Source of the DNA: a virus
DNA: 64,000 bases
Reading direction: 5' to 3' (one strand)
UHGV virus genome: UHGV-0018629
Of this stretch, positions 3,711 to 17,702 are shown piece by piece (the stretch's first letter is position 1; each line of letters starts with the position of its first letter). The notes beneath the pieces are model-generated. The model did no database searches. It was given only the letters and a program-made list of their open reading frames with translations, and was not told the origin of the DNA. The position numbers and the translations under genes were made by a program.

Positions 3711-3769
3711 ATTATTCTCCTCTTAACTGATAGAAAAATTATACCACAGTCAAGAGGAAAAGTAAACAG

Positions 3770-4897: not shown

Positions 4898-5230
4898 TCA
4901 ATTAGAAAATAAATTTATCCAAGATTGTTCTTTAATTAAAAATGGCTCAGAATCATATGCCATTAAACTCTGGGTAATTAATCCTTTAAAAGGTCCATCA
5001 ATAAACTCCATTGTAAAATATGGAATTTTATTCATTAACCGTGCATTAGGAGCAGTACACAAAACTCTACATCCTTTGAATACGCCTTTCTGCAATTTAT
5101 ACTGCTTAGGATAAAATTCGCTCAAAATGTTGTTATTTGCTAAAATTTCAAAATGATTCACCAATTTATTTTTAATAGTTTTTGGCGAAAAATAAAGATA
5201 TTCAAAAAGCTGTGTGTCTGTCATCATTGC
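4898..5230 (-). CDS. Hypothetical protein (start set at internal Met to avoid 55-nt overlap)
   Basis: ORF 4898..5278 in track; [12 protein letters not shown] start more plausible. Confidence 0.4.
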
Positions 5231-5811
5231 ATTCCGATTACGAAAAACTGTGGACGAGTAATACCACCAATGCAGCATTTACTTTTACAGCAATGTTGCG
5301 CAGTTTCAATATGAATGTCGTAAATCTTATCCATATCAGGAGATTTAACGGGCTCATCAATTATATACAAAATTCGCGAAAGCGATAAACCTCTGAACTT
5401 GCTACCTCTATTACCAATAAAACTGCGTATAGAATCAGTAAATAAACGAAAACGTATATCATCATTAGAATAACGCGAAAATTCCTTTTTAATGTTATTT
5501 GCAGAAATTTTAGCGTAAGCTGAAGTATTAGAAAGAACAATAACTGTTCCGCCATCATACAACCAATTAGCAGCAAAGTTAGTTACTGCAGTTGATTTAC
5601 CGGATTGACGTCCACCATCTAGTCGAAGTGTGCAATACTGTTTGAGCAAGTCTTCAAATGGCGGGATATATTCGTTTTTACAAATTTCTTCTACTCTAGC
5701 GTCAGAATGGTGTGTAAAAGCATTCATCAGGGATAGATAAGGACCAGTTAAAAATGTTCTCATTTTATTCTCTCTAAATTTGGGCCATTCCGTGGCGCAT
5801 GAATTGTCCAT
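5224..5811 (-). CDS. P-loop NTPase-like protein
   Basis: 195 aa; Walker A GGRQSGKST and Walker B-like ILYIIDEP; sits where denV lies in T4. Confidence 0.5.
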   Translation of the reverse strand: MDNSCATEWPKFRENKMRTFLTGPYLSLMNAFTHHSDARVEEICKNEYIPPFEDLLKQYCTLRLDGGRQSGKSTAVTNFAANWLYDGGTVIVLSNTSAYAKISANNIKKEFSRYSNDDIRFRLFTDSIRSFIGNRGSKFRGLSLSRILYIIDEPVKSPDMDKIYDIHIETAQHCCKSKCCIGGITRPQFFVIGMQ

Positions 5812-5831
5812 TTCTGTATTTACCCATTACC
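5798..5831. repeat. 34-bp direct repeat copy 1 (catgaattgtccatttctgtatttacccattacc)
   Basis: 32/34 identical to 6446..6479; overlaps start codon of P-loop gene. Confidence 0.8.
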
Positions 5832-5916
5832 GCACTTGGGCTCGACCTTATTACAGGTTGGCGGGAATCCCTCATAGAATCATGAGGTCCAGCTTGTTCC
5901 CATATTTCTTATTTGC

Positions 5917-6390
5917 TTACTTGAATGATTTGACGTACTGAATAGAACCTTTACTATTTACAAAGGCAATTTTACCATTTTTGTTATACATGGTAGCAGT
6001 ACGCTGATAGCCATAAGTTTGTTTACCAGATTGATAACCAACTAATGCGAAATTATCTTCGCCCATTTTATTCTGTTTAGCGCGGATGCGTTCATGACCA
6101 TGCGCCATAAGAACCTTAGCATCACCAGTTGCGATGGATCTACGAGTTTTTTCATCTTCAACTGTATTAACAAAGTCGTCAAATGAATCAAATTTAGCAT
6201 GGGATTTATTATACAGTTTTCCGTCTACTGCATAATTATATCCTTGTACGTCCATCTCAACTTCTGTACCATCATCCAATACAGCAGTGATCTTTTGACC
6301 TTTTTTAAATTTCAAAAGATCAGTAAAAGATTCAGCAATAATTTGAGAATTAATAGCTGCTTCAGTAATAAATTCTTGATATGTTTTCAT
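5917..6390 (-). CDS. Internal protein with capsid-targeting sequence (ipII position)
   Basis: 157 aa; N-terminus MKTYQEFITE|AA matches the CTS/gp21-cleavage pattern of T4 internal proteins. Confidence 0.65.
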   Translation of the reverse strand: MKTYQEFITEAAINSQIIAESFTDLLKFKKGQKITAVLDDGTEVEMDVQGYNYAVDGKLYNKSHAKFDSFDDFVNTVEDEKTRRSIATGDAKVLMAHGHERIRAKQNKMGEDNFALVGYQSGKQTYGYQRTATMYNKNGKIAFVNSKGSIQYVKSFK

Positions 6391-6445
6391 GTATATCCTT
6401 TAAATGTAAATAGTTTTATTCTTTAAGTTTTGGACAATTCGCACA

Positions 6446-6479
6446 CATGAATTGTCCGTTTCTATATTTACCCATTACC
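6446..6479. repeat. 34-bp direct repeat copy 2
   Basis: 32/34 identical to 5798..5831; adjacent perfect 9-bp inverted repeat ggacaattc/gaattgtcc. Confidence 0.8.
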
Positions 6480-6498
6480 AGGTTCGAACTCGGCTTTA

Positions 6499-7080
6499 TT
6501 AAGAATTACCGCGGGCTGCATTAGCAACGGCGTAAGCGTACTGAACATTAGCGTCTTTAAACGTACCTTTAGAGGTATCTATTTCTGCCTTAAAGCCGCC
6601 TTTAGTCATAACATCGGCAAATTCTTTACGGAAAGCCATTGCATCAAGACCTTTCCATGATGATTTATGCTTGGCAAATTCAAGACCAGCATAGTTGACA
6701 GCCTTAGCTAATTTATTATCAATAACCCATTTACCAGCTTTAGGCACAAACTTCGGGCCTTTTTGTTTAGAGAACAGTTTTAAATTCCAGCGACGAAGAT
6801 CACTGTCGGCTTTAACAAAAGCTGCATCTAAGTTACTAGCAACAACATCTTCAATATGGGCAAATTTAAGTCCGTCAACTTCAATATTTAGATCGTTACG
6901 CCAGCGAAGTCCTTCCCATGCGAAGGCTTTAAAGTCAGAAGCCTTTGTAGCTAAGTACCGTTCAATAGGAGCTGTTTTAGGGTCAAAGCCGTTTCCCGAT
7001 CGATAGGTCCACTCATCTTTATTAATGCCTTTGGCCTTTACTACAGAAGCTTCAGCAATAAATTCTTGATATGTTTTCAT
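6499..7080 (-). CDS. ipIII: Internal protein III
   Basis: 193 aa; MKTYQEFIAE|A capsid-targeting N-terminus; position between e and ipII-like gene. Confidence 0.75.
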   Translation of the reverse strand: MKTYQEFIAEASVVKAKGINKDEWTYRSGNGFDPKTAPIERYLATKASDFKAFAWEGLRWRNDLNIEVDGLKFAHIEDVVASNLDAAFVKADSDLRRWNLKLFSKQKGPKFVPKAGKWVIDNKLAKAVNYAGLEFAKHKSSWKGLDAMAFRKEFADVMTKGGFKAEIDTSKGTFKDANVQYAYAVANAARGNS

Positions 7081-7107
7081 GTGTTTCCTTTAAATATTTT
7101 AATTAGT

Positions 7108-7682
<575 letters not shown>

Positions 7683-10559: not shown

Positions 10560-10616
10560 AGTATTTCCTTAGGTTGATACAATTAGATAATATCACGTTT
10601 TTAATAGATTGTAAAC

Positions 10617-10952: not shown

Positions 10953-11007
10953 AATGTTCTCCTCAAGTTACAGGCTCATAATATCTCAATCATGAGCCTG
11001 TGTAAAC

Positions 11008-11325
11008 TTATTTCATATTATTGAAATATTCTTCTGCGATTTCGTCGTTATCATGGTAAACTTTAGAAGACAGTTTAACATAACCTTCAGCTGTGAACAT
11101 GTTAATCACAACCTTTACAGTATACCACTGACCATCTTCATTACCCATTACTGCGTAAGTTTCAAACATCGGATGGTCAGGACCGATAACTTTAATATCA
11201 TTCACTGTACGACCGAAATCTTCTGAAACACATTTCATAAAGAAGTTGAACAGTTCGCCGTAATTATCCATTTCATTCTCCAAGTTGTTTTTCTGTATCA
11301 GTAGTTGATAGTTGTATAGTACCAT
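11008..11325 (-). CDS. Hypothetical protein
   Basis: 105 aa ORF; likely real start at internal Met MDNYGELF. Confidence 0.4.
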   Translation of the reverse strand: MVLYNYQLLIQKNNLENEMDNYGELFNFFMKCVSEDFGRTVNDIKVIGPDHPMFETYAVMGNEDGQWYTVKVVINMFTAEGYVKLSSKVYHDNDEIAEEYFNNMK

Positions 11326-11441
11326 GGAAGAACAGTGATGTAAACAGTTTTGTGAAAAAATTTTTAGGGAATTCTGGGGCAGGGAGGGGCAATTAAAAGG
11401 TAGGATAATATATTATAAAGGGTATAAACTAAATGATGCCT

Positions 11442-12751: not shown

Positions 12752-13035
12752 CCTTGCGGCAACCTTGTCGGGGTTCCACCTGCTAAGGCAAGTGTTTGTA
12801 CGAAACGCCGGGATTCGAACCCGGTTATTAAGCAGTTGACGCTACTCAATATTTTTAAAAGGCCATATCTCGACCATATCCGAACGTTCCGTCGAAAACG
12901 CTACTCAGCTTACGGCAAAGATATTTCCTCGAATCGATAATTCGGTGCGCCGTTTCTGCTGTGATATAAGGGGGCATCAATAAACACAAAGATTATTAAC
13001 GCAATTCCTTACTCAGGGAACATCAGTCCGACGAC
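12752..13035 (-). ncRNA. Candidate structured non-coding region with tRNA T-arm-like hairpin (ccggg-ttcgaat-cccgg)
   Basis: No ORF above about 22 codons on the minus strand; GC content visibly above phage background; no full cloverleaf could be folded by eye. Confidence 0.3.
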
Positions 13036-13590
13036 TTACCGGTAGCGACCCGGTTTCTCATTTGGTATTTCAAATTGTGTAGATTTAGTATCTAATTTTT
13101 TAACTACGGAACTTATGTCATGAAAGAAAAACCATTCGCCATTTATATGGTCCTGATTATAAATGCTGTGCATATATTTTTCAAGTTCTACTGCATCCTG
13201 GGAATATCTAAATGATACTATTTTAAAACTTTTAAACGGTGAAAATGTATTTGCTGTTATAACTCTAACATCGGGTTCTATACTTCTTCCTATTTTATAA
13301 TAATTAGGATTTGTAGTATCTACCATTATGTATACGAAAGCCTGTCGATAGCTTTTTTCTATATCAAATTCATCTTTAAATTTCAAAAGATTTAGGGCGG
13401 CAGTCCTACAAAATACTTTCCATTTTGACAAACGTTTGGCTTCAGTCATAGAAAAGAATTTTTTCTTATCTGTTATTTTAAGAAAAGCAACATTTTCAAT
13501 TAGTTCTTGTGTTATTTCAAAATTACCATGGTATATTAATCCAGCTTTTATAGCCAAATTAATTTGGTCCCAGTCTACATCACTTCTCAT
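13036..13590 (-). CDS. T5orf172/MUG113-like (GIY-YIG-related) domain protein
   Basis: 184 aa; C-terminal half VYIMVDTTNPNYYKIGRS...R...LEKYMH...GEWFF fits the T5orf172 pattern. Confidence 0.5.
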   Translation of the reverse strand: MRSDVDWDQINLAIKAGLIYHGNFEITQELIENVAFLKITDKKKFFSMTEAKRLSKWKVFCRTAALNLLKFKDEFDIEKSYRQAFVYIMVDTTNPNYYKIGRSIEPDVRVITANTFSPFKSFKIVSFRYSQDAVELEKYMHSIYNQDHINGEWFFFHDISSVVKKLDTKSTQFEIPNEKPGRYR

Positions 13591-13611: not shown

Positions 13612-13688
13612 TGGCCAGGGTGAAAGGATTCTAACCTTTAACCTGCGGTTTAGAGGACCGCTACTCTATACAATTGAGTTACACCCCG
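13612..13688 (-). tRNA. tRNA-Arg (anticodon UCU), CCA encoded
   Basis: Hand-folded cloverleaf: acceptor cggggtg/caccctg, anticodon arm gcggt-cctctaa-accgc; atypical D- and T-loops. Confidence 0.55.
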
Positions 13689-16040: not shown

Positions 16041-16426
16041 CCTTCATCAACAATAGTGTGCGTATTGGCATTTACAATTTGCCACCAATCAAAGCGATTA
16101 GAACCATAATCTGGTTTGTTTTCATTTTCTTTGATAATGTCACGGAGTTCATCTTCGGTAGCGGCTTTCGCTATTAAATCAGCATATCCACCACGAGGAT
16201 AATAATTATCACCTGCAAAAAGTAAAAAGTTTGGTTTAATGTTATTGAACTCTTCGAGAGTAATAACTTTTCCTGACGGTTGAACAATCTCTACATATTT
16301 ATATCCCAATTTTTGAGCAGCATCTACTGCTTCAAGCAAAGTATCATGAGCCCATCCAATTTGACAACCTGGCTTTTCAGATGGATTCGCCTGATAATCC
16401 GCATACACTTTATACATTCTATTCAC
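16037..16426 (-). CDS. Hypothetical protein
   Basis: 129 aa ORF. Confidence 0.45.
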   Translation of the reverse strand: MNRMYKVYADYQANPSEKPGCQIGWAHDTLLEAVDAAQKLGYKYVEIVQPSGKVITLEEFNNIKPNFLLFAGDNYYPRGGYADLIAKAATEDELRDIIKENENKPDYGSNRFDWWQIVNANTHTIVDEG

Positions 16427-16643
16427 CTTTAGAAATTTTATCCATAACGATAGCGATTAAACCAATTAAAAATGCTACTACAAGTGAAAACACATTTTCT
16501 GCTGTAGTTAATAATCCACATATAAATCCAACAAACATTGAAAAACTAAAAGCAGAAGCAGAAATTGCAATAGCAACATTTCGAATTAATTCACAACGTT
16601 TCATTTTTATTCTCCTCAGTAGTTGATAGGGTAATAGTATCAC
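16419..16643 (-). CDS. Small membrane protein
   Basis: 74 aa; hydrophobic segments AIAISASAFSFSMFVGFICGLL and FSLVVAFLIGLIAIV. Confidence 0.45.
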   Translation of the reverse strand: MILLPYQLLRRIKMKRCELIRNVAIAISASAFSFSMFVGFICGLLTTAENVFSLVVAFLIGLIAIVMDKISKGE

Positions 16644-16687
16644 ACTATTACCCTACTGTAAACAACTTTGTGAAATTATTTTAAATC
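16628..16687 (-). promoter_or_regulatory. Early-promoter-like cassette: 11-bp-stem hairpin plus conserved 30-mer with GTTTAC box
   Basis: Perfect hairpin agggtaatagt-atcac-actattaccct; 30-mer gtaaacaactttgtgaaattattttaaatc identical to 16988..17017. Confidence 0.5.

Positions 16688-16953: not shown

Positions 16954-17702
<749 letters not shown>

Follow-up and report, generated by a model that had tools for sequence, protein, structure and literature searches.

A 34-bp direct repeat at the internal-protein locus of a T4-like phage coincides with a conserved non-coding element and its degenerate partial copy

We analyzed a 34-base-pair (bp) direct repeat that brackets an internal-protein gene in the virus genome UHGV-0018629. 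The window, which is the whole stretch of DNA analyzed (64,000 nucleotides, nt), is a segment of a Tequatrovirus (T4-like) genome, with ECML-134 and Shfl2 as its closest matches at 94-95% identity. All the genes around the repeat lie on the minus strand. They are the lysozyme gene e (7152-7646), the internal-protein gene ipIII (6499-7080), the internal-protein gene Ip4 (5917-6390), and vs.8 (5224-5763), which encodes a P-loop protein of PHROG 1488. Copy 1 of the repeat is found at 5798-5831 and copy 2 at 6446-6479, both read on the minus strand. The window contains two copies of an element, here called E, and the 34-mers are the part best preserved between them. The complete copy, E1, is a conserved non-coding element of about 129 nt (5779-5907, minus strand) between the Ip4 stop and the vs.8 start. 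The second, E2, is a degenerate partial copy of E1 (6414-6501, minus strand) that begins at the ipIII stop codons.

The repeat, CATGAATTGTCC(A/G)TTTCT(G/A)TATTTACCCATTACC, is identical at 32 of 34 positions, as an earlier note on this DNA had stated, and occurs exactly twice in the window; in 100 dinucleotide-preserving shuffles, no match was found. The similarity also continues beyond the 34 bp, as previously noticed, reaching 80% over an ungapped stretch of 56 nt (5798-5853 and 6446-6501). With gaps, 55 of 69 positions (80%) agree between 5763-5831 and 6414-6479, from GGTAAT to GAATAAAA, and the copy-1 side of this alignment stops at 5763, the first base of the vs.8 ATG. By BLAST, copy-2 regions matched the copy-1 regions of other phages at 76-80% over 70-91 nt. 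On the gene strand, copy 1 reads GGUAA UGGG UAAAUACAGAAAUGGACAAUUCAUG, and it comprises the last 5 nt of an invariant strand of E1, the 3' strand of the helix P3, and a Tequatrovirus-specific 3' domain. It has zero mismatches in T4, Shfl2, AR1, G4498, VIPECOOM01, W143, VEc74, and TB004. Copy 2, located inside E2, differs from copy 1 at two positions in the window and at four or more in the Shfl2-type copies (Shfl2, VIPECOOM01, and W143), and TB004 shows one further change beyond the Shfl2-type differences.

The two copies flank the open reading frame (ORF) 5917-6390, as proposed. This ORF had been taken for an ipII homologue, an assignment that we replace with Ip4. Its product matches PHROG 3155, internal virion protein (E=6e-102), and Pfam DUF7412 (5.7e-96), and the gene is annotated as Ip4 in Shfl2 and AR1. 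The N-terminus MKTYQEFITEA is common to ipIII, which places the protein among the capsid-targeted internal proteins of the T-even phages. The claim that copy 1 overlaps the start codon of the P-loop gene was retained only in part. Copy 1 does contain the first ATG (5811) of the longest vs.8 ORF (5224-5811), and the T4 record annotates an even longer vs.8, but the conserved start is the ATG at 5763. The PHROG 1488 profile aligns to vs.8 from residue 3 of the 179-aa version, and the start M(R/K)xxLT is common across genera. Because the start is conserved at 5763 and the stretch upstream of it varies in length and frame between phages, copy 1 is non-coding.

E1 is conserved on a wide scale. A 123-nt E1 query matched 1117 phage records, 557 of them nearly full length (at least 80% coverage), and the element was found in more than 500 T4-like genomes, essentially every Tequatrovirus. 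It is kept regardless of the upstream gene, which is denV in T4, Ip4 in AR1 and Shfl2, and ipIII in G8-like phages; in T4, E stands between denV and vs.8. The suggestion that the repeat is a scar of exchange does not agree with copy 1 being part of a conserved structured element under strong constraint. Beyond the T4-likes, the E core, ACCUGUAAUAAGGUCGAG-N8-CGGUAA, appears as CCAACCTGTAATAAGGTCGAGCC(C/A)AAGTGCGGTAATGGG at 93-95% identity in rV5-like phages and, in altered form, in Pseudomonas phage KIL4, phage Ivi, Jiaodavirus, and several viral contigs of 43-75 kilobases (kb). Carriers of the core include Vequintavirus, Flaumdravirus, and Jiaodavirus. In most of the non-T4 lineages, E is found within a few hundred nt of same-strand tRNA genes, whereas in the T4-likes it lies outside the tRNA cluster. 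A promoter is located downstream of E in rV5-like and Ivi-like phages, and an internal-protein gene in the contig L025.

A covariance model of E was built from the alignment of 32 T4-like copies. In the 64-kb window, it detected only E1, at 124.6 bits (E=1.7e-32), and E2, at 17 bits, with everything else at 9.4 bits or less. The model also recovered the non-T4 copies at 26-50 bits, whereas looser pattern scans of viral contigs gave mostly chance or coding matches, which were filtered out. No match to E was obtained in 5,426 E. coli genomes, and 185,579 bacterial and archaeal species (one genome each) provided only chance matches in GC-rich coding sequence; these results do not support host origin or mimicry at the sequence level. 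Rfam 15 returned no match for E1 or E2 at gathering thresholds, nor at E<=10, and no match for the E of four other carriers at E<=1. ARAGORN found nothing at E1 or E2. The literature offered no usable account of an RNA between denV and vs.8, with a catalogue of about 10,000 candidate structured RNAs of viruses (PMC10690425) left uncompared.

Other candidate identities were set aside. E is not a vs.8-specific leader, as no vs.8 homologue lies near E in the non-T4 carriers, where other features follow it. It is neither rnaC nor rnaD of T4, which are located at 12799-13061 in the window and are unrelated to E save for a short GGUCG...CGGUAAG resemblance in rnaD. CsrA-type sites were also considered, and the five GGA motifs in E1, against about two expected, were not significant. 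Two observations on other copies of E were made in passing. A 172-kb T4-like contig (L027, 8962-9224; also L057) has two nearly complete E copies in tandem, 14 nt apart, scoring 103 and 74 bits, the second with the variant core GGTC-AGCCCGCGGCGGTAA. In rV5-like phages (L022, L047, L048, L185, L186, and L188), E has a direct repeat of its own, CCC(C)NTAGAGGG(A)CTTGA(T/A)AGTGC, on either side. The two copies are about 110 nt apart, one about 60 nt upstream of the E core and the other about 20 nt downstream, and each opens with a small CCC/GGG hairpin.

For the structure of E, the 32 distinct T4-like copies were aligned with MAFFT (alignment A1). From 5' to 3' on the minus strand, the element is laid out as the hairpin P1, the 5' strand of P3, the hairpin P2, an 18-nt strand, the 3' strand of P3, a lineage-specific 3' domain, and a small terminal hairpin. 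P1 (5863-5901) pairs GGGAA (5897-5901) with UUCCC (5863-5867) and encloses an inner hairpin formed by CCUCAU (5882-5887) and AUGAGG (5870-5875). P3 (5823-5862) joins the 4 nt after P1, GCCA (5859-5862), to the 4 nt after CGGUAA, UGGG (5823-5826), and encloses both P2 (5845-5858, ACCU-GUAAUA-AGGU) and the 18-nt strand CGAG-CCCAAGUG-CGGUAA (5827-5844). The 3' hairpin, GCCA-CGGAA-UGGC (5784-5796), is situated about 20 nt upstream of the vs.8 start.

The helices vary in a compensatory manner around nearly fixed nucleotides. Among the 32 T4-like copies, all five pairs of P1 change on both sides, with 95% of the cells paired, and the variants include AAAGG/CCUUU, AAAGC/GCUUU, and AAAGA/UCUUU. Non-T4 phages have GAAUG/CAUUC, GAGUG/CACUC, GUGUA/UACAC, GAGGG/CCCUC, or GGGG/CCCC at the same place, giving at least nine different P1 sequences across the phage lineages. 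The inner hairpin of P1 has a compensatory change to CCUUAU/AUAAGG in one contig (L051). Changes on both sides affect three of the four P3 pairs, and at pair 86:119 of alignment A1, AU occurs in 11 copies, UA in nine, UG in seven, and CG in five, with none unpaired; other lineages have GCG/CGC, ACU/AGU, or CUGG/CCAG. P2 is invariant in the T4-likes and carries a compensatory change, ACCA...UGGU, in KIL4. CGAG and CGGUAA are near-invariant in all carrier phages. The 3' hairpin is kept in 32/32 T4-likes and, as it does not covary within that set, is proposed from conservation and folding; changes on both sides do appear at three of its four pairs in the broader alignment, which was fitted to the model.

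Overall, 92% of the helix cells are paired in the T4-like set, against 23-46% when the partners are slid, and the covariation score is 0.286, against 0.124 in shuffles, of which none in 500 reached the observed value. In the broader set, fitted to the model, 19 of 25 pairs change on both sides, against 9.3 +/- 1.8 in shuffles. P1 and P3 therefore vary as the helices of a structured RNA do, judged by both the shuffled and the slid controls. The 27 or more G-U cells in the helices indicate the gene strand as the functional one. An alternative pseudoknot between the 5' segment and the region after the core was rejected, as it was 77% paired, had no double changes, and was worse than P3.

E2 corresponds to the part of E1 from the P2 loop (TAATAA) to the base opening the vs.8 ATG (GAATAAAA), and its TAATAA coincides with the ipIII stop codons. 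It matches the E1 of T4 at 78% over 83 nt (BLAST), and the low model score is accompanied by non-canonical pairs in P1, P2, P3, and the 3' hairpin; all the helices, and the invariant strand as well, are broken in E2. E2 was found in 16 of about 900 records matching the locus (about a dozen phages), always directly 3' of ipIII, to whose end it is constantly joined. Where E2 stands, T4 has a promoter-early stem-loop (PeSL) spacer behind ipIII, and SA21RB-type phages have a 41-nt spacer, differing from the window by the clean absence of E2.

The perfect 9-bp inverted repeat described in the earlier note is real (GGACAATTC at 6432-6440 and GAATTGTCC at 6449-6457, plus strand); however, one of its arms lies within copy 2 and not beside it. 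On the minus strand it forms the hairpin GGACAAUUC-AUGUGUGC-GAAUUGUCC (6432-6457), which is the centroid structure at -12.8 kcal/mol. As a gene-strand intrinsic terminator, E2 gave a negative result, since the hairpin is followed by AAAACUUAAAG, with no U-run, and the scan called the plus strand only. The T4 early, middle, and late promoter consensuses had no match in the 34-nt island, by eye or by scan. The loop of the E2 hairpin is exactly inverted between G4498 (L004, CATGCGTGTG) and VEc74 (L177, CACACGCATG), and again between Shfl2 (L002, ATGCGTGC) and TB004 (L178, GCACGCAT). These pairs represent two independent palindrome-mediated loop flips, which indicate activity of the E2 palindrome at the DNA level.

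Comparison across relatives, from which alternative cargo had been expected, revealed different cargo between the same two repeat copies in related Tequatroviruses. The cargo is Ip4 in the window, Shfl2, ECML-134, G4498, and VEc74; ipII plus denV in VIPECOOM01; ipII plus an internally deleted denV in W143; and ipII plus a frameshifted denV in TB004. The entire interval from vs.8 to e is polymorphic, and the sequence comparison supports cassette shuffling at the locus. In pairwise comparison, the edges of the variable segment (5907-6358) fall at 6358/6359, the end of the leader and capsid-targeting block, and at 5906/5907, the 5' edge of E1. The exchange junctions are thus outside the 34-mer. 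Consequently, the idea of cassette exchange was upheld as far as the cargo is concerned, but not the repeat as its handle, given these junctions and the rarity of copy 2. Most of the shuffling at the locus proceeds without copy 2, because copy 2 is present in few records and is tied to the ipIII 3' end whatever follows. None of the E2 carriers showed a recombination product between E2 and E1.

A second direct repeat was noticed at the locus. The leader and capsid-targeting-sequence block of Ip4 (6359-6405, minus strand) is 94% identical to that of ipIII (7049-7095, minus strand); this 47-nt repeat, comprising a ribosome-binding leader and MKTYQEFIxEA, has a period of 690 nt and brackets ipIII. 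The locus can therefore be described as a tandem array of units, each composed of leader and capsid-targeting sequence, core, and E part. AR1-type genomes lack exactly one 690-nt period relative to the window. Two deletions were also observed among the relatives. In G8-type phages (L031, 6356-6510), the Ip4 ORF has apparently been deleted between CATT(T/C)AAA repeats. In W143 (L179, 930-1140), denV is reduced to its first codons and its last 20 or so codons, in the manner of a microhomology deletion.

We consider it probable that E1 is the working structured element and E2 a decayed pseudo-copy, the cassettes being swapped through other conserved blocks and the repeat being a by-product. E1 would be a fixed boundary directly upstream of vs.8 in the T4-likes, and E2 an ectopic partial copy of its 3' two-thirds that has since degenerated. 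Illegitimate or ectopic recombination at short homologies would have placed E2, with the left join between TAATAA at the ipIII stop and the P2 loop, and the right join between GAATAAAA before the vs.8 ATG and the internal-protein leader. E2 would then have lost the E helices and the invariant strand and gained the perfect 9-bp palindrome in its 3' part. Later swaps of the cassettes between E2 and E1 would have occurred by ordinary homologous recombination, using the leader and capsid-targeting sequence on one side and E1/vs.8 on the other. If the swaps use these conserved flanking blocks, the repeat is a by-product of shuffling and a possible substrate for cargo deletion, and not a general handle. 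T4 is known to rearrange through microhomologies of 6-10 bp (PMC9391042), and this mode would fit the proposed origin of E2 and several other events at the locus.

Some results weigh against this reading. Single-sequence folding of E1 was no better than that of shuffles (z = 0.16; z = -0.61 for E2), and the minimum-free-energy fold of E1 has neither P1 nor P3. The alignments behind the broader pair counts had been fitted to the model, and it is covariation and G-U pairs that suggest the label of RNA element. The divergence between E2 and E1 is uneven, with 2/34 differences in the island but about 8/21 in the strand that working copies keep invariant. These proportions are not what simple neutral decay predicts; to account for them, one must assume that the island was gene-converted, that a second working core was selected against, or that the donor was different. 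In addition, the left 22 nt of E2 fit the 5' end of a Jiaodavirus-type E (18/22) about as well as the E1 core (13/22); since the two alignments are similar, the left boundary and the origin of E2 are ambiguous. Either E2 or the PeSL spacer may be ancestral behind ipIII. With regard to the same region, window positions 6480-6501, covering the ipIII stop region and the left end of E2 (TAATAAAGCCGAGTTCGAACCT), agree at 18 of 22 positions with the 5' start of the Jiaodavirus-type E (TAATAAAGCCGAACACGACCT; L010, L025, and L041), and TAATAAAGC is present downstream of ipIII in all T-evens. This similarity hints that ipIII may once have abutted a Jiaodavirus-type E.

Two other explanations, both of which we regard as unlikely and neither more so than the other, assign the repeat a role of its own. 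The copies may be recombination sites, such that an E2 x E1 crossover would excise a circle with the cargo and a hybrid E, as for the mini-circles of PeSLs; the circle would re-integrate at the resident E of a co-infecting phage, and the cargo would end up between direct repeats. With 34 nt at 94% identity, the island has sufficient length for recombination in T4, E1 is a target present in essentially every Tequatrovirus, the cargo between the copies does vary, tandem E copies occur in another lineage (L027), and mini-circles between flanking repeats were demonstrated for the PeSLs of RB49 and phi1 (PMC2839356). However, both junctions of the variable segment lie outside the island, E2 stays joined to ipIII whatever follows and is limited to 16 records, the predicted resident with a 5'-truncated E behind ipIII and no intact E was not seen, and the E2 carriers contain no E2 x E1 deletion product. 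Alternatively, the island and the hairpin that follows it may be a cis-acting RNA signal (processing, stability, or attenuation) that is required after each internal-protein gene and held similar in both copies by selection. Conservation between the copies is far higher in the island than in its flanks, the perfect E2 stem stays the same in most carriers whereas its loop varies, and each copy lies between an internal-protein gene and the start codon that follows it. Nevertheless, most ipIII phages have a PeSL or a 41-nt spacer in place of E2, and the E2 island drifts (four changes in the Shfl2 clade) while the E1 island is invariant. With about 7% divergence among the E2 copies, unchanged arms would be expected by chance in about one case in four (our own estimate). 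Moreover, the corresponding arms of E1 pair at only 7/9 positions, the GCCA/UGGC hairpin is a better-conserved alternative, and no U-tract follows the hairpin on the gene strand.

The remaining explanations appear far less probable. On the plus strand, the E2 hairpin followed by TTTCTATATTT resembles an intrinsic terminator acting against the gene direction; the scan called an 11-pair stem with a T-rich tail at 6431-6458, and copy 1 has a weaker version of the same arrangement. We nevertheless judge this very unlikely, as every gene in the region is encoded on the minus strand, the three terminator-like sites detected compare with 1.6 +/- 1.5 expected, the G-U pairs of E favor the minus strand, and the wide conservation and covariation of E1 would be left unexplained. 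Marginally less credible still is that the repeat belongs to the PeSL cassettes, known as shuffling sites of T4-type phages. It is intergenic, it lies in a hyperplastic region adjoining insertions and deletions, and E2, with its stem-loop, fills the exact slot of the T4 PeSL. Against this, the PST/T4 PeSL consensus TTTACW-N16-18-TAYWAT occurs at seven sites of the window and at none in 5700-6600, a sigma-70 scan of the gene strand detected nothing in either copy, only two copies of the repeat exist in 64 kb, and copy 1 is part of a different element, whose conservation is much broader. It is hardly conceivable that the similarity is due to chance, or to coding constraint on a vs.8 protein extended at its N-terminus. 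The start of the longest ORF within copy 1 and the still longer T4 annotation of vs.8 would suit such an extension, but copy 2 is outside any long ORF, the sequence upstream of the conserved vs.8 start varies in length and frame between phages, and the variation in the helices is compensatory and not codon-like; chance, in turn, is countered by the shuffles.

Among known systems, the closest is the PeSL cassette, together with the modular polymorphism of T-even internal proteins. In T4-type phages, PeSLs serve as mobile regulatory cassettes (Arbiol et al. 2010, PMC2839356; Comeau et al. 2014, PMC4122927), for which mediation of deletion, insertion, and exchange has been proposed and partly shown. 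In both systems, variable genes of hyperplastic regions lie between short, conserved repeats in intergenic positions, the present repeat is found at insertion, deletion, and replacement boundaries between close relatives, and E2 occupies the T4 PeSL position with a stem-loop. In contrast to PeSLs, the repeat has no early-promoter hexamers, and it forms no genome-wide family, as pattern search and covariance model both gave two copies in 64 kb. Its unit comes from a structured element whose helices covary and which also occurs outside the T4-likes, and the exchange junctions are outside the repeat. E2 has a perfect 9-bp stem-loop without a gene-strand U-tract, and E1 has several helices of another kind. 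The laboratory-observed T4 rearrangements (PMC9391042) likewise have direct repeats of 6-10 bp as endpoints, with which TAATAA, GAATAAAA, the Ip4 deletion of G8-type phages, and the denV deletion of W143 are consistent, whereas the events described here are deduced from the comparison of natural genomes.

As at other T-even internal-protein loci, alternative internal-protein genes share one slot in different phages, and the block of leader and MKTYQEFI(A/T)EA is their common 5' boundary. Repoila et al. (1994, cited in PMC4122927) reportedly described the modular polymorphism of these loci with their conserved capsid-targeting leader. New here are a defined 3' boundary, the 5' edge of E1, and the rare duplicate of this boundary element behind ipIII. 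A further comparison is with rnaC and rnaD (species 1 and 2), the small stable RNAs of unknown function in the T4 tRNA cluster. E resembles them as a small phage non-coding element tied to tRNA genes, in or beside same-strand tRNA clusters in the non-T4 carriers; however, the sequences are unrelated, the E of T4-likes lies outside the tRNA cluster, and E as a discrete RNA is putative.

Internal proteins enter the host together with the injected DNA and counteract its defences; GmrSD is blocked by IPI*, and IPIII is required on E. coli ECOR17 (PMC9391042). The swapping of their genes therefore shapes host range. The present comparison determines where the exchangeable unit physically stops on either side, at the end of the capsid-targeting leader and at the 5' edge of a conserved element, and shows that such a locus can contain a repeat that is not a PeSL. 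Of greater import, the repeat led to a conserved, covarying, phage-only non-coding element that unrelated virulent phages have in common, that is associated with tRNA clusters, and that has no match to a curated RNA family. E itself may be a new RNA family. A fuller version, which we find plausible but stop short of calling probable, is that E is an undescribed phage-borne family of structured RNA, with a P1/P3/P2 fold around CGAG-N8-CGGUAA, that has spread horizontally among unrelated virulent phages of Gammaproteobacteria, the 34-bp repeat marking its pseudogene. The spread would have taken in T4-like, rV5-like, and KIL-like phages and several 43-75-kb lineages, with housing in tRNA clusters outside the T4-likes and absence from bacterial genomes and Rfam. 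Variable, covarying helices around invariant junction nucleotides would suit a ribozyme, an aptamer, or a protein-binding or host-factor decoy. If so, E could, for example, mediate the self-processing of early transcripts or of polycistronic tRNA transcripts, or act as a mimic against RNA-targeting host defence. Because T4 carries E as well, between denV and vs.8, the best-studied phage system allows a direct test of the function of E.

Elsewhere in the window, the PeSL early-promoter consensus had seven minus-strand matches, against about one expected (3738-3766, 10587-10615, 10978-11006, 11316-11344, 16199-16226, 16634-16662, and 16964-16992). The spacer between e and ipIII (7096-7151) harbors a near-consensus PeSL promoter inside a hairpin. 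Homologues of the T4 stable RNAs rnaC and rnaD were identified on the minus strand at 12799-12937 and 12944-13061, with 97% identity. Between tRNA-Arg (13612-13688) and rnaD lies an ORF of 184 aa (13036-13590), at a spot where T4 has no gene, and it covers about the first 26 nt of rnaD.

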